Assembly: GCA_045577735.1 (NCBI GenBank)
Contig: JAZNIY010000013.1
Coordinates: 26,702-90,701 of the forward strand
Direction: 5' to 3'
DNA: 64,000 nucleotides
DNA from: Candidatus Stercoripulliclostridium sp.
GTDB lineage: Bacteria; Bacillota; Clostridia; Christensenellales; DTU072
The notes below the pieces were generated by a model. That model saw nothing but the letters and a program-made list of their open reading frames with translations. It made no database searches and was not told the origin of the DNA. This document shows positions 5,049 through 35,300 of the stretch, piece by piece. The translations under genes were made by a program, and so were the position numbers. How positions within the stretch are numbered: the stretch's first letter is position 1; every line of letters begins with the position of its first letter.

Positions 5049-5124
5049 AATAACTCCTATTTCGGTATCTCGAGATACAAAATGCGCCAAGCGCGGATGA
5101 GATGCCGATTGCTTTAATAAGAAT

Positions 5125-5396: not shown

Positions 5397-5437
5397 TGCT
5401 AAAATAGTTGCACAAAGGGAAAAGTGTTCCCTATTTT
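5397..5437 (+). promoter_or_regulatory. Candidate promoter region for the giant-gene array (weak call)
   Basis: Extended -10 TGcTAAAAT at 5397-5405 with no good -35. An alternative is TTGCAC (5408-5413)-18 nt-TATTTT (5432-5437). No consensus promoter is visible elsewhere in the 395-bp upstream region. Confidence 0.3.
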
Positions 5438-5485
5438 CCTACGCGTGCGTGGGCACAAATAAAATATTATATAACGGAAAGTGTA

Positions 5486-14637: not shown

Positions 14638-17600
14638 ATGAATAAGCAGTTTGAATTAATACCTATGGAAGTTAACGTTACTAACGAAGTGGCGACAAAG
14701 AAAAAATCGCCTATGCTAAAACTCCTAAAGTATGCATTAGTGGGGATAACGGCTTTCCTTGCCTTGGTTATCCTATTCGCCGTAGGGGCAGAAAAAATAA
14801 ACCCTGCGGTAGATACCATTATGCAAAAAATGGGCGTTGGCGAGCATATCGTAGTAGCGGAAACCTCTCCCGTTGCTTACGCTTGGACAAATCCTTCCAG
14901 TAATAGTACCACGGACAACACCCGTGTTGCCGATACCGGAAGTTATACCTGGAAAGTAGTGAACCGAAACAGCACGTTGCGTCCTACGACTGCCCACTCT
15001 GGTTGGAACTGGGGCTATCGTACGGAAAGTGGTGCCGGTAACTTTACTTTAGGTTCAGACGGTAGTATTTCATGTAATACTTCAAGTGCGTTTACCGTTC
15101 AAACTTTGTTCTACGTAGATATTTACGTTGACGAGCTTGCTCGTGCGGCAATAGCAAACGGGCAAATTACTACTTGTTCAGTTTCCCTACACGTATCGCA
15201 AGTAGGAACGGCAAATATTTACGACCGTGGCGACCTCTATGGTACCTTCTTCTTGTGTGGTTCGGCTAGTGGATCTACCAACGCCGCTTGTAACGACATG
15301 GGAAGCAATTCTTACCTTGCTACAGGTCGTGACAAATTTGACGACGATATGCAAGGTGGCCGTCACGACTATTCTTGTTCGATGAGTTTGACGCTAAATT
15401 CCAACATGAAAAAGATAAGATTTGGCATTTACTATCGCATGGTTATGACCGGTAGAACGGGTGTACAGATTGGTGGTGCAGAATGTTTTGCTCCTGCTCC
15501 TACCATTTCTTCTAACTTTACTACGGATACCTACAAGAATGGTACGATTCAATTTGCCGTAGCCGGTGACGCCGGTGGTGGAAATATCTACCCCGTAACG
15601 GCCGGTACCTTTGGTGTAAGCGTTACCGACGTTCTTAACACCGAATCTTGCGTAGCAGCATTTGACAGCTCTCACCTTTATGACGGAACGGTAATAGGCA
15701 ACGTTATTGCTAAGCCTGCAAAAGGATACTATTTCTCGGGGTGGCGAATAACGGGAGCCTCGCTGTGGAATAACCCGACGAAAACGCTGACGACACTGTC
15801 TCTGGCGGGGCCATACCTGAAGGCCAATACAACTACGACGGTAACGGCGTATTTTAGGAAAATACAGGTAACTGATGAAAATGGTTCTTGGAACTACCTA
15901 CAAGAACTAAATTCAGACGGTACTCTAAAACTCGATGCAAATGGTAAACCTACGGCAATAGGCCAAGGACCCGCTGTTGTAACGCCTAGCGCAAACTCGG
16001 ATACCGGAAGCAGTGTTTCCTTCACGATTACCGGTGGTATATATTCTTCTACCAACCCCACCTTTACGTCAACTGCCAAGATGTACCAATCAACCGATGG
16101 TGGCTCACATAATTCCAACTCCAAGCCCACTAATGCCGGTGCGTATAGGTTGATAGTAGGTATATTCGTGTCGGGAACGGAAACGGATTCTTCTAAAGTA
16201 CTGGGATACTATATTAAAGAAAGCTTTACTATAGGGGCCGTTAACGTTACCCATAAAGCAGGGGAGAATGAAGTAACGACGAGTTCGCCCATTCCATCGC
16301 GTGCGTACTCTAGTTATGCCTATACTCCAGTGCCCGATTACGTTGACGTAACTATTAACAGTAGACCTTATAGAATGTTTAATTCTACCGATTACACGAT
16401 TGGTAGCTATACTAACAACGTTAACGTTTCTCGTGACAGCGATGCTTACTTTACCTTTACGTCAAGAGGCAACTTCACGGGACAAAACGATGCATACTTC
16501 AAAATTACTCACCTTAACATCAACGAAGCAGGTTTCGTTTACGATGCTACAATGGCAGAAGAAATCCGTTTGAATTACAACGTTGTTTACACTGGTTTTG
16601 AACAACGTCCCGGAACGGGTTCGGGAAACAACTATGGCGTAATAGCTTTGCGTATTACAGGTAGGGTTCTAAAAAGTGGTAGCTTTACTAGTTATGACCC
16701 AAATAACGAAACCGAAATGAACGAAAGGACGACGTTAAAGACTTTCACCATTTATATTCAAACGCAGGACAACGCCAATGCTTACAACGATGGTTTGGCA
16801 AACAAGAGTTACTTTAAGTATAATGCTCAAGGCGAAAAGGGAGAGGCTTATGCTAGCATAAACCGTGCTACGGGAGAGCATAGTTACTTCTACGTTGTAG
16901 GTCAAGACGCTGGCACGATTGACGCAACCAAAATATACAAAAATAATATTGATATTTGTACCTATGGAACAAGTGCAAACTGTGCTTCCTTTGACGTTTC
17001 ACTCGTGGAAGGTACGAGTAACATGACGGGTAGCTTAACCGCCTACTTTAATATTGGTGCACTTGACCTAAGTACGATAAATGCAGAAAACATAGTAGTA
17101 ACCCCTCAAACTCAAACTCACGTATATACTTCTGACGGAATAACCCCCGTACCCAACCTAGTACAAATTACCGTAAGTGGACTATATCCCTACCTATACA
17201 ATAGTAATACCGGTAGATATTCCAACGCCTCCAGCCTACCTATTACATATAGTTTCGCGCGCACGAATGCGTTAGGCGCGGGCGACGATTATGGTAGCGT
17301 TAGTTATGGCGACATCGATGCTTCTAAAACCGGTACGAGTGGCGCTGGACAAACCTTCTCTACTTGGAATGCTTACTTTGGTGGAACCAGACCGGATGAC
17401 TACGGTTATGCTAATAACGTTAACGCATCTTCCGAGGCACAAATTACCGTAGAACTTTCTGGTGGAGGTAATATTGAAGGTACTATTATCACGTCATTTA
17501 CTATTACCCCCAGACCTCTTAACGAAAAGGCAACAGGTTTTGGTTCAAGTAGCACCCAAACGGTAGGTCAAATTGCTCAAACCGGTTCAAACAACGTTGT

Positions 17601-20600
17601 GTACTATGCCGGTGTTGATGCAAACGGAAAACATATTCCTGTTACAACGACCAGTGCCGTTTATGCATATCCGGATGGCACCGTAAATCCTCAAGTTATT
17701 AACGTATGTGAACCTTTCGAAGACGCTAACGGCAACGGAGATTGGGACGAAGGCGAAAGCTTTAATGATACCAACGCTAACGGTGTTTGGGATGCAAACG
17801 ATTTTGTATTTACTTTCTCAAACAACACTACCGTTACCCGTTATGCAGTTATGACGGTAACCGGTAGGGGCAACTATACCGGTAGCATTTCCGCAAACTA
17901 CTACATTGTATCAATGGACTTTGTAGGAAATGGTGGAACGATAGAGGATCTTGCTGACGAAACCTATACCGGTTCTACAATTGCTCCTCAACCCAACACT
18001 CTAACCATAAATATTAAAGGACAAAGTCTTGTAATAGAGAAGGGTAAAGATTTCGTTATCGTAGATGGTATTGGAAGCAATACCAATGCAACCACCCTTT
18101 CAAATCCCAAGACGAATAACTATATAGTCATATCTTTCACTGGCTACAAGAAAGATACTGCAAACCAAGGTATTGCAACGCAAGAGAAATATGGTAATTA
18201 CTATGGTGAAAAACTAAAAGTATACTTTACGATTAAGCCCAAAGCAATTGACCATAGGGACATTGAAACTTATGCAAGCTGGCAAAACTTCAAGGATCAA
18301 GTTACCTATACCGGTAAAAAGATTGACCATGAAAATTTGAGTATAGTTACAGAAGACGTTGTTAAGACGGCGAATACCATATATCTTCGCGATACCGTAG
18401 CCAATCCCGATGGACCACTTGTAAGGAACGAAGACTATGTAATCGATAATTGGGGTGGTGAAAACGACAATATTAATGCTGGTGATTATGCCGGTATTGT
18501 AGTCATACGTGGTGAAGGCAACTATACTGGTTACGTTACCATTAATTTCAAGATATACGCTAGGGATATCGATACTATCCGTGACAACATAATAGTAAAG
18601 TTGAATAGTTATTCCTTCGAATATACCGGAGCCATGATTAGACCTCAAGTTACCGAGGTTAAGGATGAACTACTTACGGTTGAATCGAAGCAAATTCTCA
18701 CGCGCGACGTTGATTTTACCGTTAACTTTGGTGGAGAGTCTGACGATGGTTTAATTTACAACGTTGACGTATTAAAGGGTGGATTAGTTACCATAGTTGG
18801 TAAGGGTAACTATACCGGAAGCAAGACGGTGGACTTTGAAATCACAAAGAAAGCACAAACCGTTAAACTGGAAAATCCCTATGGCAACAACGTTTGGGAC
18901 GAAGGTGAAAAATACTTCGATGCAAACAATAACATGCAATATGACGAAGGCGAACCCTTTATGGATTCCGTCTATAGCACTGGCTACAACAATGCTCTTG
19001 CTCCCGAAAGCAAGGCTAACGATCCCAGCTTACAAGAGAGTGCAAAGAACGGCACTGCTGGCGTAATGTATGCCGATTATGAAGTTAATGCAGATGCAAA
19101 CGGCAACATCGTCGTAGTTGCATATACCGATGCTATTGCTCCTTTACGCCTTGTTAAGATTAAGGCTGTTAACATTAATAGGGGAATAGCTACCGGTGTA
19201 GGCGTAACCTACGTAAGCCTGGAAGAATATACTGATGAAAATGGTAAGGTCTGGGCAAAGACCACGGCAGAAGTTAGCGTTAAGGGCGTATACGGTATCA
19301 TTAGGATTTATGCCGTTCAAGAAGATGAAGTCGTTGTTAACGGCAAGCTAAACGAGGACGCAACCAATCCCGATGCTAAGATTGGCAACGAAATTTATCA
19401 AAACCGTGGCAATTACGTTAGTTATTCACACGTATGGGGAGAGGGTGACGTTTACTCCATTTATGCAAAGAGGCAAGACAAGTCCAGAACCTATGAAAAG
19501 GAAGATGGTACCATAACCACCATTTCCAAGGTATATGGTAACGATAGCTTTACTCTTGCACCACAACTTGCTTCAGGCGACTTGTTTGCATACTACGTAA
19601 AGACCGACTGTTCGAACGACAGTTACGTTGATGAAAATGCAAACGGCAAATATGACGTAGGTGAACCCTTTACCGACGTAGACAGAAACGGCAAATACGA
19701 TCCTTATATCATAAGCGTATCACAAAGTGGACAAACGAGAGTTGTTCAAGTTGGTATAGTTGGTGAAAGCATAATAACCATATATCACGACGGATACGTT
19801 CCTTCAAGATATACCCAAGCGGGAGACGATGCCAACGCATACGTTTCATATAGTGTAGACGTTAAAGTTAGAGTAAACAAGAGAACGCTAATCATATCTT
19901 TCGAAGAGTTAGACGTTCCCTATGGCGTTAACATTGAAGACTCTAGTGACTATGAGTTCAAGTATACCTACAGAACGCAAGCGGGTGAAGCCGGCACCAG
20001 TGAGGGTGACTCCTATACCACGTTACAATATTTCTCCAGAAAGGATGATATCAACGACATTTTGACCGGATATCGCGTTAGTTACGATTATTCATATTGC
20101 ACCGACGTTAATAGTTATCTTCTAGAAGTATTCGGCAATGAAGATGATATTGAGAAGGGTAGCTTGTACGACAACTATAATATCGTTTACGAAGAGGGTA
20201 TCCTTAACGTTGTAAAGAGGGCGTTGACGGTTTCCGTTTCTATGAATAATAGCGCAGCCAATACGCTGTCAAAAGTTTATGGTTCTGAAAATCCCACGGA
20301 ATATGACCTCGAATTCGTAGGCTTCCCCGAAGGAGAAGGAAAGAACGTACTGGAATATGACCCCGTATTTGTCAACAATCGTCCCAGAATCGTCTTTAGT
20401 AGCGTAGGAATTCGTGATGAAAATGGCAATCTTACCGGTGAATATAGTGACGAAGTTACCAAGTATAGCGACGTAGGTGGCTATACTGTATTGCTAACTG
20501 GAGGACAAGCAACTAACTATTATTTCACCGACGTAAAGGTAGACTTGTTCGTTACTCCCGCACCCGTAGTTATCAAGATTGGTAACACGGTAGACGGTGT

Positions 20601-23600
20601 ATTTGAAGAAGCTGAAGACGGTGTAATCGTTAAAAAGGTTTACGATGGCAAACAAGTAATGCTAATGTCCGACAACGTAAGTATTGAAGGCGTTGATGAA
20701 AATGCTACCGTTCCAATTCAAGATGAAACCACGAAGATCTCATTCCTATACGTCTATGGCACGACAGAAACGGCTATCCCACAAACACTTGCAAGAACCT
20801 ATGCGATAATAGTACAATTCGAGGCTAGTGCAAATGATAACTATACCGCCACGAACCAAAGGTTCGAAGGTGCAATTATTATCGAGAAAGCCGAACCTGT
20901 AGTAATTTTGAATTACTCGGAAATTGAGTACACCGGTAGGCCCATACCTATCGCGCGCGTAACACCTATCATAAGTGGGATTTATGGTGGCAAAACGATT
21001 GATAACACAAACTACCATAAGTTGTTGTTCGAAAAGGATCCCGAATTGAATTACGAGCCTACCATAGAGGATGGCGTACTTGTTTACGATGAAAACATGT
21101 ACACCGAGATTCCACCCACAGCACTTGGACAATATGACATGATAGTCGTTTACGTTGCAAACGTTAGTGACGTATACAAAGACGTAACGGTATACTTCGA
21201 AGACGTATTATACGTTAAGACCGGTATTGCGACTATCGAGTTTAATCCTATAGGGGATAAAAACTTTGTATACGATGGATTGGAACATTCGGTTGACGTT
21301 TCGGAATTCCAAGCATCATATACCTCACAAGATACGTTAATAACCGAAATACTATATAACGGAAGTTTCACTATACAATACATGGGAAGTGATGGCGTTG
21401 TGACGTCAAAGGCTCCCGTTGACGCAGGTAATTACGCTGTTATTGTTAACTATATACCCGCAGAAGGGGATCCCGTTGACGGCGGTTCGGCTACGTTCGC
21501 AAATGCAATAAAAATTGCTCCGTTTGATCTTGCAACTCCGGGACACATCTATGCTGAACTACTTAGTGGTAGCTACAACGAAGTAACCTATGATGGTAAA
21601 GAACACCCCATTCAAAACTCCGAAATCGTACTATTACCCGTTCCTGCTGATCAAGCAGTTGAGGGCAGAAGACCCATGGGTACTATTGCGATATCTTACG
21701 TAAATGCTCAAGGTGTTGCTTATTCTACTCCCATAAACGCAGGTTCATACTTTGCAATGGTAACCTATATCCCCAACGATTCCGGTGATAACTATACCTA
21801 TGGTGCAAAAGAAGCGGACGGCACGTTAATTCCTATTAACGTTGGTAAGGTGGTAGAAATCAACAGGGCAGAGGTTAGAATAGAGGAGATGTTGACCGTC
21901 AAGACCGAGCAATACACCGGTAGAGGCGTCCAAATGAACGCAGTTAAATACTATGGTGTAGAAATCACTCCCGGAAGATATGACGTACCCGTTGGTAAAC
22001 TAAGATATGAATATCGTTTGAGCAATTCTGCAGAAGGTTGGACCGAAAGATTACCCGTAAACGCAGGCACCTATGACGTAATGGTAACCTACGTATCGGA
22101 AAGCATAGACAACTACTACAGCCGTGAAGGCAAGATAGGTTATGGTGTAATCGTCATAGAGCCCATACTACCCAGCATTGCTATTAATAGTATGGTATTT
22201 GACTTTGGTACTGACATAGCACCTTACTATGACATCAACAATAGCTTATTTGCAGGTTACGTTATCCGTGGCGCACAAGCTGACGTTGATGGACCTCTTG
22301 CAGACATTCAAAACAACGTTTCCATCGTAAGTGTAGTATATGGTACTCGCTATACCGATCCTACAACCAACAAGATTGAATACGAATGGTCCGACAGAGC
22401 ACCCGTTGCAAGTGGTAAGTATAGCGTAAAGGTAACCTACCAAGTATTGCAACGTGACAGTTCTAACTACAGCACGAATGCCGTAACCAGACAAGACTGC
22501 TTGACCATAAACAACATTATACCTTGGTTCAAACTAGAGACCAAGACGGTATTCTATAGTGGTGAACGTGCTTCTGCAAACCTCGCAACCGTATATGATA
22601 GTAGTTCATATGACAACGAATATATCAAGTGGGAAGAGGGCATGGACAAATATGGTAACTACTATTATGGTACTATTGGTTACGAATACAGGAAGCAAGG
22701 CACCGATTCTTGGCTAACTGCAGCACCTAGAGAGGTAGGCACCTATGACGTACGTATTCGTTACTATGAAAACCTTAAGAGTGACTCTTTCACCTCACAA
22801 ACGCTAATAGTAAGTGGCGCCCTTGAAATTAAACCTCTAGTAATCAACGTAATGCCTCTCTACGGACAAGGCAACGTATACGATGGTTCCTATACCGATG
22901 GTAACGCAGTTGCATACGTATATTCTTACGAGCGTGACGGATACAAGTACATGGTATATTCCAGAGTAGGCGATTTGGAAAAGGGTGAAATCATTGATAT
23001 TTCCTCTGCTGAATACGTTGATGAAAACGGACACGTATTCAACGTTTTGACGGACACCAGCCTAGAAGCCGAAGCTTGGAGAGATTACTACACCAAGGCA
23101 CTAATTCTAGGGGAAGGAAGTTTCGTTGATGGTGGTGAAAACGTTATCTTCAACTTTGGCGAGCTTCTAGACACTAAGGGAATGGTAGTTCTTAATGCTT
23201 CAAACGGCAAGAGATACGAAATTGACCTTGACAGAGAAATCGTATATCTAAACGATGGCATTACCTATACGCTAGGTACTCAAAGTGGATATTACTTCTC
23301 CGAAATTAATGGTGAGGGAGCTGTCAACGTAATAGAAATTGACCCCAATAAGGTAGTTGGTGGCATATTCAGCCTCAACGTAGCAGGTAGAATCAAGAGA
23401 TATACCGTAAACTTTGGCGATATGACGGCTATTGATGAAAATGGCGTACGTTATGACATCTATCGCAATGCAGGTCGCATCGAGTACGTAGAGAATGGCG
23501 ACACCTATAATATCTCTATCGACCACAGTGCATATTATCAAGTTGGAGTAGATGGCAAGGCTATTTACAAGCACGCAAATGGTTCTGCATTCTTGATTGA

Positions 23601-25410
23601 TATTAACACTTCCAAGGTGGAAAGAATTGCAATTTTGAAGGTAGAAACGGCAAGCTTCAGCTACATTGACGTTGAAGGCGAAGAAAAGAACGTAACCTTT
23701 AACGTTAGCGACTTGACTGCTCTATACACCAAGAACTCATATATTGGTCGTTACCAAATCCGTGAAGACCTCAGCGTTATTGTTGACCTAAAGGCAAAGA
23801 CGGTAAGAATACCCACCTTCTTTATTGTTAAGGAAAACGGAACGATGCTATCATTCATCGACTATAACGGACTTGAAGACCGTTTCATGAGATCCAACCT
23901 CTATGCAACGACAAGAGAAAACGTATACTTGTATTACAGTAACTATGGCGATACTTACTACGTTGACCTTGAAAACATGATTGCAAGAATTATTAACAAC
24001 CTCTACTTCTTTGACGCTGAAGACGAGAGAATCTACCAAGTAGTAGACGGCGTAGAGAAGAGCTTTGGCGTTGACGTTAGAGAGTTCACCTACAACGTAG
24101 TACGTGGTGGTAAGCTCTATGACGTAACCACCTTGTATGGCGCAGAATACGAAGTAGAAAAGACCACCCTCATTGCAGGCAACGAATGGAATGGTAGCAT
24201 GAGATTGAGCGCACAAAACGCTGGCGCATATGAAATCACACAAGGCTCCCTTGTAATTGGTGGAAACTACAGCATTAACTTCGTAGGTGGCGTATTCTAC
24301 AAGATTGAACGCACAAAACTTCAAATCGAGTTTGTTGGCACCGACAATACCATCTATGACGGACAAGGCAAGTACGTAAGCTACGTAATTAATGGACTTG
24401 TTAACAACGAAACCGAGCTTGTACTTAATGCAAAGCAAGAGTATGATGGTGACAACGTTAACGTAACCTCAACGGGTTATCGCACCAAGATTTCATTAAA
24501 AACTGACAACTACTATATTGAAGGTGGCAGAAACTTTGAAGACGAAAGCAGTATTTATAGTGATTACTACTTTATCGATCCGGCAACCATGGCACCCATA
24601 GTATTTGAAAGAGGGGATGACATCGTATACGACGGCTTCAAGCACTATCTTGAACTCAAGAACGTAGAAAGAGGGGCAAAGGTAACCTATTCCGGTTCCA
24701 GCACGGCACCCTACTTTGTAGAACCCGGTATCTATAGCATTATAGCAACGGTAAGCAAGGACAACTACGTGTCCCAAGAAGTAGAGCTAACCATAGTAAT
24801 CACCAAGGCAAAGTATAGTCTAAACGTACTTGACGTACCCGGCACTTTGACCTATGGCGATGCACTTCCTGCGCTACGTACCGACTCACAAGACGGCACC
24901 GTTGCACTAGATCCCGGTCAAGTTCTACTACCCGGAGTTACCACCTATACCTGGACGTTCACACCTCATTCTCAAGAGTTCTACAAGTTCTATGAAGGCA
25001 ACTCACAAGGTGGAAGCACCATAACCGGTACCATAGAGCTCAAGGTACAAAAGGCACAAGCGAACATTCAAATTAGTGGTAACTTGGTACAATCCGAAAC
25101 CAGTCCCAGCGCAATTATTGGTATTGCAAACGGACTAAGCCACAACGAGAGCGAGCTTGTAACCATAGAGTACGTTTCAGCAGACGGCACTCGTTATGCT
25201 AAGATGCCCACCGAAGCTGGTAAGTATACCGTAGTAGTAACCTATGCCGGTGACGAATACCATATGGAAACGGTATACACCACCACGCTAACGATAGAGG
25301 CGGAATCCAACTACGATTGGTTGATAATCCTAGGTGGCGTACTTCTTGGATTAACCGTATTGAGCACGGCATTCTTCCTCATTCGTGGTAAGAGAAAGAA
25401 ACTAGACTAA
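14638..25410 (+). CDS. Giant surface protein 2 (3590 aa): N-terminal signal anchor, head module, InlB-B-repeat-like element, long run of Ig-like/MBG-like repeats with EF-hand-like Ca-loop inserts, C-terminal TM plus basic tail
   Basis: AGAGAGG RBS. N-terminal hydrophobic segment KYALVGITAFLALVILFAVGA. GYYFSGWRITG element. Dozens of ~80-100 aa repeats share the motifs Y(T/D)G..., NAG(T/S)Y, GNYTG and a final I.(K/P). The C-terminus is DWLIILGGVLLGLTVLSTAFFLIRGKRKKLD. The gap to gene 1 is only 80 nt and has no hairpin. Confidence 0.85.
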   Translation: MNKQFELIPMEVNVTNEVATKKKSPMLKLLKYALVGITAFLALVILFAVGAEKINPAVDTIMQKMGVGEHIVVAETSPVAYAWTNPSSNSTTDNTRVADTGSYTWKVVNRNSTLRPTTAHSGWNWGYRTESGAGNFTLGSDGSISCNTSSAFTVQTLFYVDIYVDELARAAIANGQITTCSVSLHVSQVGTANIYDRGDLYGTFFLCGSASGSTNAACNDMGSNSYLATGRDKFDDDMQGGRHDYSCSMSLTLNSNMKKIRFGIYYRMVMTGRTGVQIGGAECFAPAPTISSNFTTDTYKNGTIQFAVAGDAGGGNIYPVTAGTFGVSVTDVLNTESCVAAFDSSHLYDGTVIGNVIAKPAKGYYFSGWRITGASLWNNPTKTLTTLSLAGPYLKANTTTTVTAYFRKIQVTDENGSWNYLQELNSDGTLKLDANGKPTAIGQGPAVVTPSANSDTGSSVSFTITGGIYSSTNPTFTSTAKMYQSTDGGSHNSNSKPTNAGAYRLIVGIFVSGTETDSSKVLGYYIKESFTIGAVNVTHKAGENEVTTSSPIPSRAYSSYAYTPVPDYVDVTINSRPYRMFNSTDYTIGSYTNNVNVSRDSDAYFTFTSRGNFTGQNDAYFKITHLNINEAGFVYDATMAEEIRLNYNVVYTGFEQRPGTGSGNNYGVIALRITGRVLKSGSFTSYDPNNETEMNERTTLKTFTIYIQTQDNANAYNDGLANKSYFKYNAQGEKGEAYASINRATGEHSYFYVVGQDAGTIDATKIYKNNIDICTYGTSANCASFDVSLVEGTSNMTGSLTAYFNIGALDLSTINAENIVVTPQTQTHVYTSDGITPVPNLVQITVSGLYPYLYNSNTGRYSNASSLPITYSFARTNALGAGDDYGSVSYGDIDASKTGTSGAGQTFSTWNAYFGGTRPDDYGYANNVNASSEAQITVELSGGGNIEGTIITSFTITPRPLNEKATGFGSSSTQTVGQIAQTGSNNVVYYAGVDANGKHIPVTTTSAVYAYPDGTVNPQVINVCEPFEDANGNGDWDEGESFNDTNANGVWDANDFVFTFSNNTTVTRYAVMTVTGRGNYTGSISANYYIVSMDFVGNGGTIEDLADETYTGSTIAPQPNTLTINIKGQSLVIEKGKDFVIVDGIGSNTNATTLSNPKTNNYIVISFTGYKKDTANQGIATQEKYGNYYGEKLKVYFTIKPKAIDHRDIETYASWQNFKDQVTYTGKKIDHENLSIVTEDVVKTANTIYLRDTVANPDGPLVRNEDYVIDNWGGENDNINAGDYAGIVVIRGEGNYTGYVTINFKIYARDIDTIRDNIIVKLNSYSFEYTGAMIRPQVTEVKDELLTVESKQILTRDVDFTVNFGGESDDGLIYNVDVLKGGLVTIVGKGNYTGSKTVDFEITKKAQTVKLENPYGNNVWDEGEKYFDANNNMQYDEGEPFMDSVYSTGYNNALAPESKANDPSLQESAKNGTAGVMYADYEVNADANGNIVVVAYTDAIAPLRLVKIKAVNINRGIATGVGVTYVSLEEYTDENGKVWAKTTAEVSVKGVYGIIRIYAVQEDEVVVNGKLNEDATNPDAKIGNEIYQNRGNYVSYSHVWGEGDVYSIYAKRQDKSRTYEKEDGTITTISKVYGNDSFTLAPQLASGDLFAYYVKTDCSNDSYVDENANGKYDVGEPFTDVDRNGKYDPYIISVSQSGQTRVVQVGIVGESIITIYHDGYVPSRYTQAGDDANAYVSYSVDVKVRVNKRTLIISFEELDVPYGVNIEDSSDYEFKYTYRTQAGEAGTSEGDSYTTLQYFSRKDDINDILTGYRVSYDYSYCTDVNSYLLEVFGNEDDIEKGSLYDNYNIVYEEGILNVVKRALTVSVSMNNSAANTLSKVYGSENPTEYDLEFVGFPEGEGKNVLEYDPVFVNNRPRIVFSSVGIRDENGNLTGEYSDEVTKYSDVGGYTVLLTGGQATNYYFTDVKVDLFVTPAPVVIKIGNTVDGVFEEAEDGVIVKKVYDGKQVMLMSDNVSIEGVDENATVPIQDETTKISFLYVYGTTETAIPQTLARTYAIIVQFEASANDNYTATNQRFEGAIIIEKAEPVVILNYSEIEYTGRPIPIARVTPIISGIYGGKTIDNTNYHKLLFEKDPELNYEPTIEDGVLVYDENMYTEIPPTALGQYDMIVVYVANVSDVYKDVTVYFEDVLYVKTGIATIEFNPIGDKNFVYDGLEHSVDVSEFQASYTSQDTLITEILYNGSFTIQYMGSDGVVTSKAPVDAGNYAVIVNYIPAEGDPVDGGSATFANAIKIAPFDLATPGHIYAELLSGSYNEVTYDGKEHPIQNSEIVLLPVPADQAVEGRRPMGTIAISYVNAQGVAYSTPINAGSYFAMVTYIPNDSGDNYTYGAKEADGTLIPINVGKVVEINRAEVRIEEMLTVKTEQYTGRGVQMNAVKYYGVEITPGRYDVPVGKLRYEYRLSNSAEGWTERLPVNAGTYDVMVTYVSESIDNYYSREGKIGYGVIVIEPILPSIAINSMVFDFGTDIAPYYDINNSLFAGYVIRGAQADVDGPLADIQNNVSIVSVVYGTRYTDPTTNKIEYEWSDRAPVASGKYSVKVTYQVLQRDSSNYSTNAVTRQDCLTINNIIPWFKLETKTVFYSGERASANLATVYDSSSYDNEYIKWEEGMDKYGNYYYGTIGYEYRKQGTDSWLTAAPREVGTYDVRIRYYENLKSDSFTSQTLIVSGALEIKPLVINVMPLYGQGNVYDGSYTDGNAVAYVYSYERDGYKYMVYSRVGDLEKGEIIDISSAEYVDENGHVFNVLTDTSLEAEAWRDYYTKALILGEGSFVDGGENVIFNFGELLDTKGMVVLNASNGKRYEIDLDREIVYLNDGITYTLGTQSGYYFSEINGEGAVNVIEIDPNKVVGGIFSLNVAGRIKRYTVNFGDMTAIDENGVRYDIYRNAGRIEYVENGDTYNISIDHSAYYQVGVDGKAIYKHANGSAFLIDINTSKVERIAILKVETASFSYIDVEGEEKNVTFNVSDLTALYTKNSYIGRYQIREDLSVIVDLKAKTVRIPTFFIVKENGTMLSFIDYNGLEDRFMRSNLYATTRENVYLYYSNYGDTYYVDLENMIARIINNLYFFDAEDERIYQVVDGVEKSFGVDVREFTYNVVRGGKLYDVTTLYGAEYEVEKTTLIAGNEWNGSMRLSAQNAGAYEITQGSLVIGGNYSINFVGGVFYKIERTKLQIEFVGTDNTIYDGQGKYVSYVINGLVNNETELVLNAKQEYDGDNVNVTSTGYRTKISLKTDNYYIEGGRNFEDESSIYSDYYFIDPATMAPIVFERGDDIVYDGFKHYLELKNVERGAKVTYSGSSTAPYFVEPGIYSIIATVSKDNYVSQEVELTIVITKAKYSLNVLDVPGTLTYGDALPALRTDSQDGTVALDPGQVLLPGVTTYTWTFTPHSQEFYKFYEGNSQGGSTITGTIELKVQKAQANIQISGNLVQSETSPSAIIGIANGLSHNESELVTIEYVSADGTRYAKMPTEAGKYTVVVTYAGDEYHMETVYTTTLTIEAESNYDWLIILGGVLLGLTVLSTAFFLIRGKRKKLD

Positions 25411-25492: not shown

Positions 25493-26257
25493 ATGAAAAT
25501 TAATTGTGGTTCACAACTTTATACCTATCGTTCTGTTATAAAGACGGAAGAGGACCTAAAGGCCGTATTTACCAGACTTAAAGAGTATGGCTGTACCGTT
25601 GCGCAATGGAGTGGCGTTAAGGTTCCAATAGAGGGTAGCGCACTCAAGGCGTTAGGTGAGGAGCAGGGCATAAAGATACCACTTAGCCACACCCCGTGGA
25701 AGAGGATAGTGGAGGAGACGGACAAGGTCGCAAAGTGGCACCTGGAAGCTGGAGCGCACACCGTTGGACTTGGCATGATGGACGTTAAATACCTACGTTC
25801 CTACGACACCCTCCAAGAGTTTTGTAACAAGGCGAACGAGATAGGGGAAAGGCTAAAGCCCTATGGACTAAGGTTTGGATACCATAATCACTCTATGGAA
25901 TTCAAGAAAATGGGGGACAAGTTGGTTATAGAGCACCTAAGAGACAATTGCCCCGACCTAGAGTTCATATTTGATACCTTTTGGTGTAAGTACGCGGGAC
26001 ATGATCCTAGCGAGTGGATATTAAAGTTAGAGGGCAGAGTGAGAGATATCCACCTTAAAGATTGGAAGAAGAGTATACTCAAGCTACCAAGGTTCCAAGA
26101 CGTAGGAAAGGGCGAGTTAGACTTTGAGAGCATACTCAAAAATGCCGAAAGGGCGGGGACGGAAAGTGCGCTAATAGAGCACGATACAACGAGAAACCCC
26201 GACAAAACGACGAAAGAGAGCATGGAATATCTAAAAGAGATATACCTGAACAAATAG
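25493..26257 (+). CDS. Sugar-phosphate isomerase/epimerase (xylose-isomerase-like TIM barrel)
   Basis: Start moved to ATG 25493 (MKINCGSQLYTY...) with AAGGGAAAG upstream. The spaced motifs GYHNHSMEF, FIFDTFW, IHLKDW and ALIEHD are typical of the AP_endonuc_2 / xylose-isomerase-like TIM fold. Confidence 0.7.
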   Translation: MKINCGSQLYTYRSVIKTEEDLKAVFTRLKEYGCTVAQWSGVKVPIEGSALKALGEEQGIKIPLSHTPWKRIVEETDKVAKWHLEAGAHTVGLGMMDVKYLRSYDTLQEFCNKANEIGERLKPYGLRFGYHNHSMEFKKMGDKLVIEHLRDNCPDLEFIFDTFWCKYAGHDPSEWILKLEGRVRDIHLKDWKKSILKLPRFQDVGKGELDFESILKNAERAGTESALIEHDTTRNPDKTTKESMEYLKEIYLNK

Positions 26258-26335
26258 ATCACAAAAAACCAAACAACGAGAAAAATTAAGGAATCCACTT
26301 ATTAGCGGAAACGCCAATATCTAGGAGAATAAATT

Positions 26336-29300
26336 ATGATGAGAGTACAAGTAAAAAGAATAAGTAAACCCACGTTATTTATAGTAATGCTAGTAGCATT
26401 AACGCTTATTTGCGGATTGTTGTTTACTTCTATACAATTAAACAAAGACTTGATTGCAAGCGCTGCAACAAATATGAGCGTGCCTACCGATCCACAAAGC
26501 AATCATGCTACGTCCATGTCATATTATAAAGGAATAGAGACAAATGCTAGTACAAACTTTTTACAAGATACTGTTGATACAACGTTGACAGCTGGCACAA
26601 CTAAAACCATAACTTCTGACTTTTCTACAGCGGATGATACAGCGGCAGGGCACTTTTCAAATAATGGCTCAACTTGGTCAAGGAATATGGCTTATGATAA
26701 TACGGTTGGTTCAACGACAATCAATACTATGCTATTCTTTTATACTTTTAGGTTGGATGAAGATTTATATGAAAACATAATAAATGGTATGGTTAGCATA
26801 AGTGTTAGTGGTAGTTTCCAAGCTGGAACCACCTATGGTTCTGGTTGTGGCGACTGGTTTTCTGGTTTATATGTTGGCGTTGGCTATGCTAGTAGCGATG
26901 AGAACTCAGTATATTTACACGATTTTGTTCAAATTAGTGCGGTAACGAGTGGCTTTGGCGATCAAGTTTCTAATGCAACCTATCCAACATCCGATACGGC
27001 ACCTGCCATTAGTTCTCAAACTCTAAATAATAACTCAAATATAAGCAATTCTTATGGAAAGTATTTAAGAATAGGCTTGTTTGGTAGAGTATGGAACTGG
27101 GAAGATAGGAATATGACGGTTGCCATTAATAGTTTGAGTGTTACTATAACGGAACCAGAGGCATCCATGACGGTACCAGGCGATAATAATAGTGCCGTTG
27201 AGCCCTGGTATGCTAGTGATATGGCTGGTGGAAACACGGCAAATCCCGCAAGTGGAGTATTTGGTTATCATCAACAACCGAGCAATTTGATTCAAACAAT
27301 CGATACGCTGGATTATTCGGCCAGTAACATAGGTGCGGATTTCTATCGTTATAGTGACAACCAAACGGCGCAGGACAAATTTACAAACGTAGATACAACA
27401 GCAATAGATAATATTACCGGTTCGAATGTAGCTGGAAGATTCTACAACTCCGATGGTTGGTCTTTTGCTGGTGGAAACCAACTTTATCAAGTTGGTTTTA
27501 TGTACACATATAAACTAACAAACGACGTATATAATGCAATCATAGCAGGGAATGTTTCTATATCGTTGGGAGCAACGGCAAAATGGGGTGTTCTTTCGGG
27601 AGATGGTGACGTTGACTCTTGGCTATACGTTGGTATAGGATATTCTCCAAACGATAATTCTGCTGTTTCATATGAAGGATTTAGGCAAATAACGAGAGCG
27701 CAAGGAACGAAGTATGATCAATCTTCAGGTGGATCTGCTTCAACACAGAGCACTGCTAATAGTATTAGTAATGTAACTTTAACTGCAACAAACCCAAATG
27801 ATTACAATAAATACTTGCGTATTTGTATGTGGTTTGAAGCTTGGCCAGGTTCTGGTGGTGGCACTGCACAAATTACAGATGTAAGAATGAACCTTACAAT
27901 GTCAGAAAAAATACCAGTAGATACAACGGTACCATCTTATACAAACAATATGACAAAACCATCAGGAATTACCGTTCCTGGAACGTTTTATAGTAGTGCA
28001 GAATCTCGTAATTTCCACAAACAAGATTCAATGTACACCATATCTAATAGCTCAACCAGTCCCAAGTATTCATTAGTGGCAAGTGGGACGAGTTCTCAGT
28101 ATTTTCAAACAACCAATTATAATATAGTTCAGAACAATTGGGGAACAGATGGTATTTCATCGGGGCTTATTTTTGCAGGTGTTAGTTCGCTTAATATGGA
28201 AAATTCTACTAGTACTAGCAATATATATAAGGCTCGTTTAGAAGTTGGTGAGTATGCTTTGTATGGTATGTTCTATTCCTTAAGAGTGTCGGAAAACGTA
28301 TATAATGCACTACTAGCTGGACAAATTGCTATTGATTTTGAGCCAACTAGCTCGTATAGTGGCGCAAGTGCAACGGCAAGAACGTGGGGCTATATTGGAC
28401 TGGGTTACGCAGCAAGTGAAGATGCAGTTAAAACGGGAAATGGTTTTATTGAAACAAAAGGCTATTTGTCTGGTGCAAGAGGACATTTGAAAGGGACTTC
28501 CGATTATAGTACTAATGGCTCAGCAGCCAATAGGCTATCAGATTTTGTTTTTACAAAAAACGGAGTAGTTACTCAAAATTACAACGGAAATGCAAGCAAT
28601 GGAAATGATAAATACCTTCGTTTTGGTCTTTGGGGATATTCTACGGCTGGTAGCACTAGTGGCTCTCAACACGATTTTACTTTGTCGGAAGTTTATTTTA
28701 ACATAACGATTAAAGCTGTAAACAAGGATGAAAGTGGTCCTATATTTAATATAGAGTCAGGGGATATTGTCTCCACCAACAATGCGGTTACGATTTCCGA
28801 CAATCCGGGCGTTGACTATTACTTATTAAATGGAAATAGAATAGAAGTTGCAAAAATATCTAACACTTCGTTTTCAACATCTACAACGATTACTTTGCCA
28901 AAGCAAGGAAATTATACTCTTTCAGCAGTAGATCTTTGGGGATATTCTAGTATAACCATTAGTTTTACCTATTTCTATTCCACCGTTTACGCTCAAGCAA
29001 ATACGGATGGCACGCAAGGTGACTATAGCGGTGGAGGCGTAGTGTTTGGTAAAGACTACACCAACCTAAGCAGTTACAAATCGCAACAGATTAGTCATAG
29101 TGGTAACTATACTATGCAATACAATCTTTGGGCACACCCCAACGACGGCTATTATTTTGCTGGCTTTACTATAAATGGCTACTCTAATATTAATTTGAAT
29201 TTGATCACCCAAAGCATTAGTACGGCAGGTACGTACTCTGGTACCAATGGTAGTTACTCAACTATTAATGGTGATACTAGGGAATATAAGTTCACTTGGA

Positions 29301-32300
29301 ATGCCTATACCAACGTCATTATTCCTGCCGATGGTAAATTCTATATAACGGCTCACTTTAAGAGCATTCCCACCACTAATAATAGTGCTACCTATGATGG
29401 TATGGCAAAAAACGTTACAATAGGTGACGTTTCCAACGCACCCGGTGTTGGAACTATGAGTAAACTTGCTGTTTCTTATACCGATTCAGCATCTAATACA
29501 ACGACGTCATCACCTATTAATGCGGGAACCTATGTTGCGACATCAACCATTACGTGGAATGGCAACGTTGTTGGTGTAAAGACGGAAAATCTTACCATTG
29601 CTCAAAGGGAAACCACGGCTACTTATACTTTGACAGGTACTGCCCGTAATTATAACGGAAGTAATGATTTCTCCGGTTACGTTTCCTATGCTCTTTCCAA
29701 TCTTGTTTATGGTGATAACGTAGGGCTAGACGTTGTCGCTACAACGGCTGATGCCAACGTTGGTGCAAACAAAGCGTTAAGCATTAGTGCAACGCTTAAT
29801 GGGACCAGTAGTGCAAATTATACTCTTACCAACCCCACGGATAACACTAAGACCTTTACTATCAACACGGCTCCCGTAGAAGTAGTATTCGAGGTGGCGA
29901 ATAAGCCCTACGACGGCAACGCTACGGCATCCGTTACGGTTGGTAGCATTACGGGTTTGATTGGTACAGAAAGCATTCTTTACAATGACCTTAGTGCAAC
30001 CTATGCCGACAAGTATGCAGGGGACAACAAGAAGGTAACCCTAACTAACCCCGTAGCAACGGCTGGAGAGGGTACTAGTCTTGCAAACTACGACATTACT
30101 ACTAATGCCGATAGTTTATATGCAACGATTAGTAAAATAGAGTTAACTATAGATTATCTCCTTACAACCTCTAAGGTATATGACGGCAACGTTACTGCAA
30201 GCGTATCTGACGTTCAAGCAAGCGGTTATATAGGTGACGATAATACTAGACTATCAATTAGCGTTACTGCAACCTATGACGATAGCAATGCTTCTATAAA
30301 CAGAATAATTAGTATTGTCTTTGCAGTATCTGGTGCCGAAAGTATTAACTATTGGACCGAAGACCCCGAAGACGTAAGTGGTATAATCGAAAAACGTTAT
30401 CTTACCATAACGGCTGATGACAAAACTAAGGTATATGGTGAAGCAACTCCCGCATCGTCCTATAGCGTTAGCGCAACCAACGGTGACAATGACGGCACCT
30501 TCGTAACGGCAGACGATGAAAGTGCTTCCAATATAACTATCACCATACCGAGCGTTACTAACGCCGGCAACTATACCATTTCTGCAACGGTAGAAAACAA
30601 CAATGAAAACTACTACTTGTCTGCTGTGGATGGTAGCTACACCATTACAAAGCGCCCTGTTACCGTAACACTAAAGGAACAAGGTGGCGTATACGGTACT
30701 CCCGACCTCGGTGTTGACCAAGGAGCTTACGAAGTTTCTGCAAGCGGTGGTTATGCCTATCTTGGCGACGATTTGGGTATTAGTATCTCTAAAGCAGGGG
30801 ATATGGAAGTAGGCGCACACGCTCTAAGCGCAACCTCTTCCAACACCAACCACGAAGTAAACTTCGTAATCGAAAACAACTTTGTTATCACCAAACGCGA
30901 CCTTACTATCACCTTAGGTGCACAAGGCTCGGTATATGGTGAAGCAATAACCCTTTCAAACACAGTATTCACCACGACGGGACTTGTTAGTGGCGACAGC
31001 GTAGAAGTCATAATTTCCAAGGCAGACGGCACGCAAAAGGGCGAATATGCTCTTAGTGGCGTATTAAACACCGAAAGCGTAAGTTATGCTCACGTTGTTA
31101 AGAACTACAATTACACCATCGTTCCCGGTATCTATACCATTTCCAGAAGGGCAATAACCATTATTCTTGCTCCTCAAGGTTCTGTTTACGGCATAACTCC
31201 CGTAGTAAACCAAGGCGTTGACTACTTCAGCCTAGATACCACCGATGGAAAATTCGACCTTGCTAGCGGTGACGCCAAAGAGGATCTTAACGTTACTATT
31301 ACCAAGGCAGACGGCATAAACGCAGGAGAATATGAACTAACCTTTACTTGGAATAACGACAATTACGAAATAAGTGGTGCTAGTGGCATCTATGCTATTA
31401 CCAAGGCAACCCTAGACGTAACCTACGTTAGTGAAACTATCACCTATGGTGGCACTCCCGGTTACGCAGTAACCTACGCCGGATTCAAGTATACCGATAA
31501 CGAAGACGCTGTTACTACAAAGGCAACGCTAGATACTGCTAACCTTGCATACACCGGAAGCAATATTACTGCAAACGGAGAAGGATATCAAATTACTCCT
31601 AAGGGAGCAGAAGCTCTCAACTACGACTTTAACTATATTGCCGGCACGCTCACTGTTTTGAAGAAGAGCTTGTCCGTTGCTTACATCGAGGAAATCACCT
31701 ATGGTCAAAGCCCTGTAACCAGCATAACCGCAAGTGAATTTACCGTTACCGGACTAATTGGTGAAGAGGGCGCTGGCGTACTAACCTTAACTGCAAATTT
31801 GCCCACTAGCGCAGGCACGCACACCATTACAAGCGATAACCTCACCTTCCAAGCAACCAACTATGAAGTAACCGAAGTAAGTGGTTTACTAACGATAAAC
31901 AAGGCTCAACTAGAAGTTATAATAGGGGCACCTAGCACCGTTGTTCACTATGGTGACAGCATTACCTTGAACGTAACCTACGGCACCACCGGTAAGAACT
32001 TTGTAAATGGCGAAAACGCCGACACGGCTCTCACCCAAAAGGTTGTTGTAGATTTTGCTTCTATCACCAACGAAAAGGGATACGTAAGCGCAAATGAAAG
32101 TGGCTATGACCTTGCTACACTCATTAGCCAAGAGGCAACGGCAGACAATTATGAAATAATCCATACTGCTCAAATCCTTTACGTCTACAAGAAAGAATTG
32201 ACTTTGACCTATCAAGGTGAAAGCAAAGTATACGATGCATTAATCCCCACTCCTTCCAAGGATAAAGTAGTGGTAAGTGGTCTTGTTGACGGAGAAAGCC

Positions 32301-35300
32301 TAGAATATCTTGGCGAAAGCGAAGGATTCGACTACAACTTGGCTGTTAATGCTCCCAAGGCGCAAGTAGGGGAATATCTAGTATACGCGACCTACGTTTA
32401 CGGCGGCGGTAGAGATGCTCTTAACAACTATGACATCAAGTTTGTTCGTGACTACTACGACATCACGCACGCCACCCTTACTGCCACCTACGTTTCCGAG
32501 TCCATCGTATTCGGTGCTACTCCCACAGGCGCTGTTGTATACTCCGGCTTCAAGGGCTCCGATAACGAAGACGTTGTCATTACCAAGGCAACCGTTTCAT
32601 TTGAGAGCATAGATAACGTTACCATTCTCGGTGAAAACAGTTACGTAAACGTTAAAGAGGGGGGATACGCTCTTGCTCCCGAGGGCGCAAGCGCAGTAAA
32701 CTATGTCTTCAATTACGTTGAGGGTACTCTAACCGTTACTAAGAGAGAGGCCTCTCTCGTACTTGTAGACCAAACTTCAGTTTACGGCATAGCCCCCGTT
32801 GTTGGACAAGGTACGGAATACTATGAATTAACCGGACTACTTGAGGGCGACAGCCTAACCTCTCTAACCATTACCAAGGAAGAGGGCATAACGGTAGGAA
32901 GCTACGTACTTGACGCTGTCGTTGTGGCTCCCAACTATGAAGTTGCCGTTACCAAGGCAACCTATACCATAACCCAAGCAACCTTGAACGTTACTATCAG
33001 CTTTAATAGGGCATCCGTCCTTGATATCGACGTTGCATCTCTAACCACCGGCGACTTCACCATCGAATATGTCGGCTGGCAATATACGGATGACGAATCC
33101 TTGTTGGATACCCCCGTTTCCGTGGACCTAGATGCTATTATCTCTACTGCAACCGAAGCTGGCGAATATACCATTTTGTATATCGTAGGTAACGATGATC
33201 AATATATCTTCAACTACGTAAGCGTTGGCACAATCGTTGTTGTTGCTTCCGAAAAAGACGTTGATATTAGCGGTCTATCCTTCACCAGTAAATCTCTTCC
33301 CTATAACGGACAAGAGCAATACCTCGAAGTTGTTTGGAACGATCAACCCGAAGAAGTTGACGTTGAAATTTCCTACACCTATAGTAAACCTTTCCACAAG
33401 GACGTTGACGTATATAGTGTAATTGCAAGCTTTAGAGTTAAGACCGAGGGCTACAAGGACAATATCCCCTCCATGGAAGCATCTCTTACCATTACGGCTC
33501 TTGACGTATCACTCACCCTTGCTCCTCAAGGTTCAGTATACGGCGAAGCAGTAGAAGTAAAGCAAGGTGACGAATACTACACCGTAAGTGGTACCCTTAT
33601 TGAAGGTGACGATCTTGGCGTAGTTATCACCAAGAGCGACGTTATGAATGCAAATCATGGCGAATATGACCTTGATGCAACCATTTCCAATACCAACTAT
33701 AACCTTGTTTCCGTAACCACGAACGTTTATACCATTTCTAAGGTAAACGTAACCGTAAAACTAAGAAATCAAGTTGGCGGATATGGTAAGACGGCTCAAA
33801 TAGCACAAGGGGAATACGATATCGTTGCGGGCGCACTCGTTGACGAAGGCGATATGGTTATCACTTTGAGCGTTGAAACTGCTACCTTGTACGAAGTAGG
33901 CGAAAGCTATGCTATTACTGCAGAAATAGTACCCAACGAATGGTACGTATTTGACGTTATCGATGCAGAATACACCGTTGTTGCAATGGCAATCCAAATA
34001 ACCTTGAACAACGTAATTGCAACCTATGGCGATGACGTAGATGCTACCACTACCTATACCCTCACAAGTGGTACTCTAGCAGACGAAGGCGATGACCTCG
34101 GCCTAGTCTTCAGCATCACTCAAGCCGACAAATACGTTGTTGGTGGCGACTATAGCATTTCCGCTACCGCTTCTAACGACAACTACGTGGTTGAAGTAAT
34201 AGGTGCAAAATACGTTGTAGAAGCCAAGTATATCGAAATAAAAGTTGCCGACCAAAACTCCACTTATGGTGAAGAGTACGTTATCAAGAATGACTTTGCA
34301 CTCGTTGAAGGCTTCAGCTTGGAATATGACGACGAGAAAGAAGATCTGGGCGTAATCGTAACCGTAAACAGCTCTTCTTTGAATGCCGGTACCCACGTTC
34401 TTAGCGCAACAACCTCAACCACAAACTACAACGTTAAGGTAATTAACGGTGCCTACGTTATTGCTAAGGCAACAACCGTATTCTATACGGAAAAGCTACA
34501 AAAAGAATATACCTATACCGGTAACGCAATTAACTTTAAGACCGATACCTCGTACGTATATACCAACAGACCCAATAATCAATCAGGCATTAAGCTTCCC
34601 ACCGTTAGCGTAATCAACGCAGGTCACTATACCGTAACCTTCTCCATTAACGAGAGCACCAACTACGCTTCTGCTAGCGTTGACGTAAATATCGTAGTTC
34701 TTAAGGCAAATCCCGTTGTTAATATGTCCGTTCTTCTAAACAAGACCTACGTTTATAACGGTGTAGAGCAATATATTACTGCATCCAAGGAAGATTTGCT
34801 AGTCAAAGCAGATTTTGATGAAGTAACCCTATCTTGGTCGGGTGAAGTATTCAAAGACGTTCCCGAAACGGGTAACAAACTCGTAGAGCTAACCCTTTCC
34901 GAAACCACGAACTACTTCCCGGCAACCTTTACTCAAACTGTTCCTATCAACAAGGCTAGATATGACTTCACCGGACTAGATTATGCTTTCGCTGGTCTAT
35001 CTAAAGAGTACGACGGCAAAGAATGCTCTGTTCAAGTAGTAAATCTACCTGCAGGTATCACCGTTGCGTATTCATATAAAGATACCATCCAAGAAGCACC
35101 ATTCCTCTTCAAGAATGCAGGTGACTATATCGTTAAAGCAATATATTCCTATGACGAAGTTAACTACGAACGTCCCACCGAATTGATAGAAACAGCATAC
35201 GTTCAAATTGAGCGTATAGATATCACCGTTGAGGTTGTTGATCAACACGGTTACTACGGCGATGCTCCCGAATTCGATCCCAATGGTATTAATGTAATAG

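Follow-up and report, generated by a model that had tools for sequence, protein, structure and literature searches.

Giant surface adhesins of Gram-positive bacteria, such as GspB, Hsa and Fap1, the serine-rich-repeat protein (SRRP) of Limosilactobacillus reuteri and the adhesins built from MucBP or MBG repeats, carry a strain-variable N-terminal binding region on a conserved stalk. Polymorphic receptor-binding cassettes are known from the receptor-binding-domain classes of CdiA, from the swapping of tail-fibre and receptor-binding-protein tips in phages, and from the variable domain of Myxococcus TraA. Here, we describe the head of giant 3 (g3), a very long protein encoded on a contig of Candidatus Stercoripulliclostridium sp., a genus named from chicken-gut metagenome-assembled genomes (MAGs). 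The sequence under study, called the window throughout, is a 64-kb stretch of that contig, and all coordinates are window positions on the + strand unless marked otherwise. An original prediction, made from the letters of this DNA, had described three tandem units at the N-terminus of g3; what it had not seen is that, judging from the comparison of contigs, these units are subject to cassette exchange within and between species, focused on nucleotides (nt) ~26,440-28,970.

The head of giant 3 and its alleles

Giant 3 is an open reading frame (ORF) of 3425 amino acids (aa) at 26336-36613 (+), with the following parts:

26336-26467, +: signal peptide and N-terminal hydrophobic segment (aa 1-44, with LIASA followed by ATNMSVP), read from the translation
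26468-27160, +: head unit a, the most distal copy (aa 45-275), from BLASTP and a hidden Markov model (HMM)
27161-27913, +: head unit b (aa 276-526), from BLASTP and AlphaFold2
27914-28723, +: head unit c (aa 527-796), from BLASTP
28724-28969, +: beta-rich domain of ~80 aa that moves with the unit-c cassette (megablast breakpoint at 28970 in contigs L009, L013 and L014)
28970-36529, +: stalk of repeated small domains, from Pfam and identity profiles
36530-36613, +: C-terminal transmembrane helix (ILVVSGGMLIIFLAMGMFFLF), basic tail RKKFIN and stop codon, read from the sequence

The predicted layout of g3, with the units at the N-terminal end of a stalk that closes in a C-terminal membrane helix, was borne out by Pfam and by the sequence itself. 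The stalk matched YDG (54.7 bits, three stretches) and MBG_2 (89.9 bits, seven stretches; Pfam cut-off 25), with further diverged copies, and all of these matches lie beyond residue about 1260. Residues 1-800 matched nothing in Pfam, and no Pfam match was obtained for the ~80-aa domain at 28724-28969. With repeats above the Pfam gathering score and an N-terminal signal peptide, g3 falls among the YDG/MBG-repeat surface proteins of Bacillota. Its C-terminus contains no LPXTG motif, and an anchor of the same type is kept, near-identical, in all full-length relatives.

The triplication of a ~250-aa unit in the g3 head was confirmed by mutual BLASTP matches far beyond chance (E = 3e-19 to 5e-10), namely, 3e-19 for units a and b (38% identity over 130 aa), 1e-12 for b and c and 5e-10 for a and c. 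The motifs quoted in the original prediction are all present where it had placed them, in g3 (aa 134-273, 388-524 and 645-793, i.e., nt 26735-28714) as well as in giant 2 (g2; aa 157-269, nt 15106-15444) and giant 1 (g1; aa 123-242, nt 5774-6133), the two other very long proteins of the window. The repeat period is about 255 aa, and units a, b and c each score 198-239 bits with an HMM built from 20 units. Similarity between units, at 28-38% identity, is confined by BLASTP to the C-terminal ~130-160 aa: in each unit, the C-terminal ~140 aa are well conserved, with the motifs FFYTF, YNAL, WLYVGIGYA and KYLRIGLW, and the N-terminal ~110 aa are poorly conserved, being alignable only at the M-[ST]-x-P motif that starts them and at a few aromatic residues. 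Since the three units of the head share no DNA-level repeat, the triplication is ancient, and recent tandem duplication or slippage was rejected as its origin.

The TIM-barrel protein and NrdD, encoded on either side of g3, recur without any sequence difference on other metagenome contigs, 15 for the former and 13 for the latter. The flanking DNA of same-species contigs is 96-100% identical to the window, and their g3 heads are radically different. Along the head, the identity profile against these contigs drops from 99-100% to about 40% at the DNA level and then climbs back. Each of the three positions is occupied by a small set of alleles, distributed as follows, with the alleles at a position separated by semicolons:

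Position 1 (unit a): window; L007, L008, L009, L012, L016 and L017; L013 and L014; L010 and L011 (26-41% aa identity between alleles)
Position 2 (unit b): window, L007, L009, L010 and L016; L008; L013 (32-41% aa identity between alleles)
Position 3 (unit c): window and L007; L009, L008 and L013 (34-37% aa identity between alleles)

Protein identity within an allele is 87-98%. The unit-a allele of the window was seen in no other contig, at least three other alleles occupying position 1 in the species; its unit-b allele is common to L007, L009, L010 and L016 at 95-98% and is replaced in L008 and L013, and its unit-c allele occurs in L007 at 91% aa identity. The alleles are combined as A1B1C1 (the window), A2B1C1, A2B1C2, A2B2C2 and A3B3C2. 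The breakpoints in megablast are sharp, and they recur between contigs. The left breakpoint falls inside the signal-peptide segment, at nt 26412-26443 (comparison with 10 same-species contigs), and others fall at 27166, the a/b junction (five contigs), at 27913/27930, the b/c junction, and at 28970, after unit c and the ~80-aa domain, where contigs with the other unit-c allele regain high DNA identity to the window. Several same-species contigs end inside the head, as is expected where strains differ.

The stalk is 97-100% conserved within the species, except in L008, which is divergent until nt 29944, so that exchange is not in every case confined to the three units. In L008 itself (about 13100-14100), the divergent block extends ~1 kb past the head cassettes and into the first stalk domains. 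The neighbouring giants served as controls. Giant 1 is 98-100% identical in three same-species contigs (its N-terminal domain, 100%); in g2, aa 1-136 are 100% identical in one contig and aa 286-3590 are 95-100% identical in four, with residues 137-285 not covered. Proteins P0002, P0003 and P0004 were set aside as evidence on variation of g2 within the species, as they come from other species with 64-70% DNA identity throughout.

Exchange also appears to have crossed species boundaries. Contig L002, from another species of Ca. Stercoripulliclostridium, is 96% identical in DNA to the window over 27913-30209, a stretch that starts exactly at 27913 (96-97% in unit c), whereas the next 4 kb of stalk on the same contig is only 76% identical, and its units 1 and 2 are alleles unrelated to those of the window. 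Similarly, P0015, from a MAG that shares about 70% identity with the window at the g1/g2 junction, is 93-97% identical in protein from unit c onward and 32% identical at the end of unit b, a link between species that holds if the MAG was binned correctly. Some alleles are nearer to units of a goat-colon MAG (60-65%) than to the alternative alleles of their own species.

When the window is compared with L007, unit c has a ratio of nonsynonymous to synonymous substitution rates (dN/dS) of 1.79 and unit b one of 0.62, and for the remainder of g3 the value is 0.20-0.22 (unit c versus stalk, Fisher p=2e-5). Within the 64-kb window, no silent copy of the head was found at either the DNA or the protein level, and no template repeat. 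A diversity-generating retroelement (DGR) or a silent-cassette mechanism was accordingly rejected for the window, given the lack of a template repeat or silent copy and the fact that the alleles differ across whole modules. The head region (26001-30000) has the lowest G+C content of the window, 0.391-0.400 versus 0.41-0.46 elsewhere, which is compatible with Asn/Ser/Thr-rich coding, with laterally exchanged DNA, or with both.

Family and predicted fold of the head unit

The three units and 14 diverse relatives gave no Pfam, NCBIfam or PDB sequence match, in keeping with the original prediction that the motifs belong to no described family. In Pfam at E<=10, no family recurred across the 14 diverse units, and the sole match of carbohydrate-binding-module (CBM) or lectin type was to F5_F8_type_C_2, for one unit (E=0.084). 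Profile HMMs of the described CBM, lectin and immunoglobulin (Ig) families did not place the units in any of them, NCBIfam gave nothing, and PDB sequence profiles gave nothing relevant.

Relatives are few. A word-indexed search of 5.8 billion proteins returned one, a partial hypothetical protein from a Clostridia MAG, and an exhaustive HMMER search of 1.84 billion cluster representatives returned 11 proteins at E<=1e-3, of which one is spurious, leaving ~10 relatives. The rejected candidate is P0012, a cohesin/dockerin protein with seven short low-complexity repeat matches only. Every relative whose N-terminus is present carries one, two or three units directly after the signal peptide, and in every full-length relative the units are followed by a YDG/MBG_2 stalk and by the same anchor at the C-terminus. 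All complete relatives are giant proteins of Clostridia MAGs, and the named members are all entered as 'MAG: hypothetical protein [Clostridia bacterium]'. In the species-representative genome collection, the family occurs at two loci, one in a goat-colon Clostridia MAG with the synteny kept (g2-like giant, TIM barrel, g3-like giant with three units, nrdG) and the other on L002. No relatives turned up when viral contigs and JGI (Joint Genome Institute) metagenome contigs were scanned for the KYLRIG pattern; the diversity of the 14-unit alignment was too great for use in pattern scanning. The literature on MBG/YDG domains, on the genus and on giant adhesin cassettes yielded nothing relevant. Because the family searches were negative and the relatives are few and all from Clostridia MAGs, the head domain is, on sequence criteria, unrecorded and phylogenetically narrow. 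With clear boundaries, motifs that are conserved and >25 diverse units in its seed alignment, the family could be registered in a domain database.

One same-species contig (L004, ERZ28594901 scaffold_285, gene 1-9102) has a g3 orthologue called at 3846 aa, compared with 3395-3425 aa elsewhere. The extra ~420 aa, upstream of the stretch that was fetched, could be a fourth head unit or added stalk repeats.

The fold of unit b was modelled with AlphaFold2 from a 5-sequence alignment, giving a predicted template-modelling score (pTM) of 0.71 and a mean predicted local distance difference test (pLDDT) value of 65.6. In the confident core, residues about 40-60 and 100-251 (pLDDT 70-93), long antiparallel strands are accompanied by one short helix on the conserved DVYNAII motif; the model is not reliable for residues 1-37 and 62-98. 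The best Foldseek match in the PDB is TmCBM61 (2xom/2xon; E=1.7e-4), with a template-modelling (TM) score of 0.43-0.46 normalised by target. Further matches include the CBM-like domain of an arabinanase, MAM, domain III of Cry toxins, the sugar-binding domain of Fbs1, CBM16/27, a TNF-like lectin, phage tailspike modules and viral capsid jelly-rolls, all at about 12% identity. For CBM61, MAM and Fbs1, Foldseek probabilities are 0.97-1.0 and E values 1.7e-4 to 1e-3, with TM scores of 0.43-0.46 at best for a model of moderate confidence. Against predicted viral structures, the matches were phage tail, fibre and uncharacterised proteins and one protein with an F5/8-type-C domain, with TM scores of at most 0.41. 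These comparisons agree at fold level, and at moderate model confidence, with the original guess of a jelly-roll or lectin-like beta-sandwich: the unit is modelled as a jelly-roll sandwich of lectin or CBM type to which no specific family can be assigned.

Neighbouring giants and flanking genes

The following features precede g3 in the window:

5408-14557, +: giant 1 (g1), a very long ORF of 3049 aa
5606-6157, +: N-terminal domain of g1 (aa 67-250); membership of the head family not supported
14638-25410, +: giant 2 (g2), a very long ORF of 3590 aa
14860-15540, +: N-terminal domain of g2 (aa 75-301); may be a remote relative of the head unit or share only its fold class
25493-26257, between g2 and g3: xylose-isomerase-like TIM-barrel gene (AP_endonuc_2), 254 aa

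The original prediction took all three giants to be anchored at the C-terminus, which holds for g3 and for g2, in which a C-terminal transmembrane helix is present, and fails for g1, which, unlike g2 and g3, has no membrane anchor there. Pfam gave weak MBG matches for g2 and nothing significant for g1. Neither the exact g3 sequence nor the exact g2 sequence has an entry in the contig collection, and the g1 N-terminus found no homologue in the word-indexed search. An orthologue of g1 (3016 aa) lies at 909-9959 of contig L019 in the same synteny, through which alone it was reached. Residues ~2150-3049 of g1 contain many repeated glycine-rich strands of G-G-[VI]-[VI]-G or GLUG-like type, e.g., NVGGVVGIL, YAGGVIGLLEGG and YVGGLVGAMVGG.

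A diverged copy of the head module had also been proposed at the N-terminus of g2, with a weaker echo in g1. The check named for this proposal, an HMM built from the units, left both N-termini no higher than noise, the result that the original prediction itself had said would count against it. The 3-unit HMM, run over all six-frame ORFs of the window, scored g3 only. With the 20-unit HMM, the g2 N-terminus reached 0.9 bits (288 of 2000 shuffles equal or higher) and that of g1 3.9 bits (81 of 2000), and an HMM of the 28 motif columns, run over the same six-frame ORFs, found neither. In hhalign, the unit profile aligned with the g2-family and g1-family profiles at 2-4.5% probability, about 2% for g2, and over a short strand-helix motif alone (for g1, 22 columns, 4.5% probability, P=0.009); a tblastn search with the head as query returned nothing from the remainder of the window. 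The sole pairwise BLASTP match is between g2 aa 147-273 and unit a (29% identity, E=0.004), and none was obtained between g1 and any unit. A module in g2 is thus not demonstrated, and the echo in g1 stands at noise level.

Could g1 and g2 nonetheless carry true single copies, members of one homologous head family that have diverged beyond sequence recognition? The match of g2 to unit a is co-linear over 137 residues, and the unit HMM gives the g2 orthologue P0004 15.9 bits, a value reached by 0 of 2000 shuffles; on the other hand, the 20-unit HMM scores g2, P0002 and P0003 no higher than shuffles, g1 is at shuffle level as well, and the hhalign, motif-HMM and tblastn results above speak the same way. 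An AlphaFold2 model of the g2 N-terminal domain (four sequences; pTM 0.65, pLDDT 61) runs in the order long strand, helix, two long strands and further strands, as in unit b, and Foldseek matches it to Fbs1, CBM22, MAM, CBM16 and the Eph ligand-binding domain, with 2e31, 8a28, 7uae, 5w6h, 8xmz and CBM16 among the neighbours that it has in common with unit b, so that the predicted fold class is the same; the jelly-roll is, however, a very common fold, and a shared fold class is no proof of homology. The best hhalign segment of g1 falls on the same strand-helix motif, and in all three giants the N-terminal domain is followed by a GYYFxGW-type domain, yet the N-termini of g1 and g2 are invariant within the species, unlike the g3 head (for g2, over the first 136 aa in one contig). 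We consider common descent of all three heads somewhat doubtful; the g2 N-terminus may be a remote relative of the head unit, and membership of g1 in the head family is unsupported. In L019, from a related species, the g2 orthologue is split into the 272-aa P0004, which consists of the N-terminal domain only (10001-10819), and a downstream ORF (10885-14046), by a premature stop or frameshift (a pseudogene) or by an assembly error.

The TIM-barrel gene between g2-like and g3-like giants is kept across species (L001, 8315-9091; L007, 7091-7855). Downstream of g3 lie nrdG, nrdD and a thioredoxin-reductase-like gene. NrdD (37511-39874) combines ATP-cone, NRDD and Glutaredoxin domains, the last fused at the C-terminus, and the thioredoxin-reductase-like flavoprotein gene follows at 39934-40857. 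Upstream of the cluster, 1822-3132 on the - strand encodes a stand-alone condensation-domain protein of 436 aa (Pfam assignment taken from an identical gene in L020), and downstream, 42302-46027 on the + strand encodes a secreted-looking metallophosphoesterase of 1241 aa with a purple-acid-phosphatase N-domain.

Proposed role of the head and described systems

We put the probability at about 0.5 that g3 is a cell-surface fibre whose tip modules are exchangeable specificity cassettes for a variable external ligand, with the alleles kept by selection. According to this proposal, the signal peptide would export g3, the C-terminal transmembrane helix and basic tail would hold it in the membrane, and the ~2,500-aa stalk of YDG/MBG_2 type would project the N-terminus, as the cell-distal end, away from the cell. 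The tip would consist of three tandem ~250-aa jelly-roll modules, in which the conserved strands (FFYTF, the YNAL helix, WLYVGIGYA and KYLRIGLW) are modelled to form the core and the variable Ser/Thr/Asn/Gly-rich loops, together with the N-terminal halves of the modules, may form the binding surface, as in lectin and CBM modules or the receptor-binding tips of phages. Candidate ligands would be a host or dietary glycan or the surface of another cell. Homologous recombination at the short conserved M-[ST]-x-P junctions would shuffle the alleles, whole cassettes would move between related species, and diversifying or frequency-dependent selection on the ligand interaction may maintain old alleles. 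A ligand- or recognition-facing role of the units, as suggested by the original prediction, gains indirect support from the cassette hypervariability confined to the head and from the raised dN/dS. In a more far-reaching form, which we regard as rather doubtful, the three positions would make up a combinatorial and laterally mobile system of specificity cassettes from a new lectin-like family, in a small clade of uncultured animal-gut Clostridia; its alleles, much older than the species, would be held by balancing selection and traded at the M-[ST]-x-P junctions, giving each strain a three-part recognition code, for glycans or other cells, on a fibre with an estimated length of >100 nm.

Several points weigh against the proposal of a ligand-binding fibre tip: (i) neither a ligand nor binding-site residues can be named, and binding is a predicted role; (ii) the structural matches are generic, with TM scores below 0.5 and ~12% identity, and the model was made from 5 sequences, with low confidence in the N-terminal ~100 aa; (iii) the dN/dS values come from small counts (27.5 nonsynonymous, 4.5 synonymous); (iv) some of the allele combinations were read from metagenome assemblies, in which chimeras could in principle arise, a concern countered by the common junction of ~18 nt, which is shorter than the k-mers of assemblers, and by the occurrence of the L009 combination on a k141 contig; (v) several contigs may be duplicate assemblies of one sample, which makes the number of independent strains uncertain; and (vi) hypervariability of the head is equally expected of an exposed target of antibodies or phages that binds nothing specific.

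The last point is the core of a rival explanation, in which the units are the most exposed part of the fibre and have been diversified by secretory antibodies of the host or by phages that use it as a receptor, with no specific ligand or with binding that does not depend on the allele. Antigenic or phage-evasion variation of this kind fits the discrete and deeply diverged allele classes, the replacement of whole cassettes and their lateral transfer, the dN/dS above 1 in unit c and the restriction of variation to the head, with the stalk and neighbouring giants conserved; it also fits the unit nearest the tip being the most variable, with four alleles at position 1 and, in L002, 34 bits for unit 1 versus 198 bits for unit 3. 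However, the core motifs are strongly kept in every allele and species and each lineage has a fixed number of modules, which argues for a maintained function and not a neutral decoy, and the predicted fold class typically serves binding. We hold evasion to be unlikely as the explanation, noting that it is compatible with the binding-tip proposal and does not exclude it. The few discrete alleles without a continuum, their sharp class boundaries at the distal end of a giant filament and the exchange of cassettes among related species that share a habitat would suit cell-cell recognition, in which a polymorphic tip gives homotypic or allele-matched contact (kin discrimination or aggregation) in the manner of the Myxococcus TraA variable domain or the CdiA receptor-binding classes. 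This explanation seems to us quite improbable, given that g3 has no toxin or immunity module (it ends in a membrane anchor, and no toxin domain was found in it by Pfam) and that no polymorphic partner gene is linked to it, the flanks being conserved.

The head is the only strain-variable stretch in a 64-kb region that is otherwise about 98-100% conserved, and it is thereby a prime candidate for strain-level attachment, niche or recognition in an uncultured gut lineage. The natural series of alleles, with no fewer than four, three and two at positions 1, 2 and 3, and the sharp junctions lend themselves to domain swaps and binding experiments. In this species, assemblies are prone to break in the head, which strain-resolved metagenomics should allow for.

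Compared with described systems, the head is a new domain family predicted to play a known role, that of the variable binding tip of an adhesin. It resembles the galactose-binding-like and CBM jelly-rolls (TmCBM61, Fbs1, the MAM domains of meprin and LAST-MAM, CBM16/22/27, F5/8 type C discoidin and Cry domain III) in the predicted sandwich with a core of ~140-150 aa and in being a terminal, non-catalytic module, with Foldseek probabilities of up to 1.0 and E around 1e-4. It differs from them in that TM scores are at most 0.46 and identity ~12%, that no Pfam model scores as a recurrent family at E<=10 on 14 units, and that the units have an extra, poorly conserved N-terminal half of ~110 aa and motifs of their own, with no mappable sugar-binding residues. 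DGR targets and pilE/pilS-type silent-cassette systems likewise place variability at the ligand-facing end of a surface protein, but the variation in g3 consists of the replacement of whole modules at ~30% protein identity, unlike the adenine-directed point mutagenesis of DGRs.

With the cassettes of CdiA, phage tips and TraA, the head shares discrete allele classes, sharp recurrent breakpoints at domain junctions, lateral transfer and a conserved backbone. Unlike them, g3 has no toxin/immunity pair (a CdiA-like protein has a polymorphic C-terminal toxin followed by an immunity gene, whereas g3 ends in the helix and RKKFIN, with nrdG as the next gene), no phage context (viral contigs were scanned without a match) and three separately exchangeable tandem positions. 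The stalk adhesins of Gram-positive bacteria resemble g3 in the sequence of signal peptide, variable N-terminal region, long repetitive stalk and C-terminal attachment. The g3 stalk is made of YDG/MBG_2 domains, unlike that of serine-rich-repeat adhesins, its anchor is a C-terminal transmembrane helix without LPXTG, and its tip, unlike theirs, consists of one to three tandem copies of a single new family, each of which is exchanged separately.

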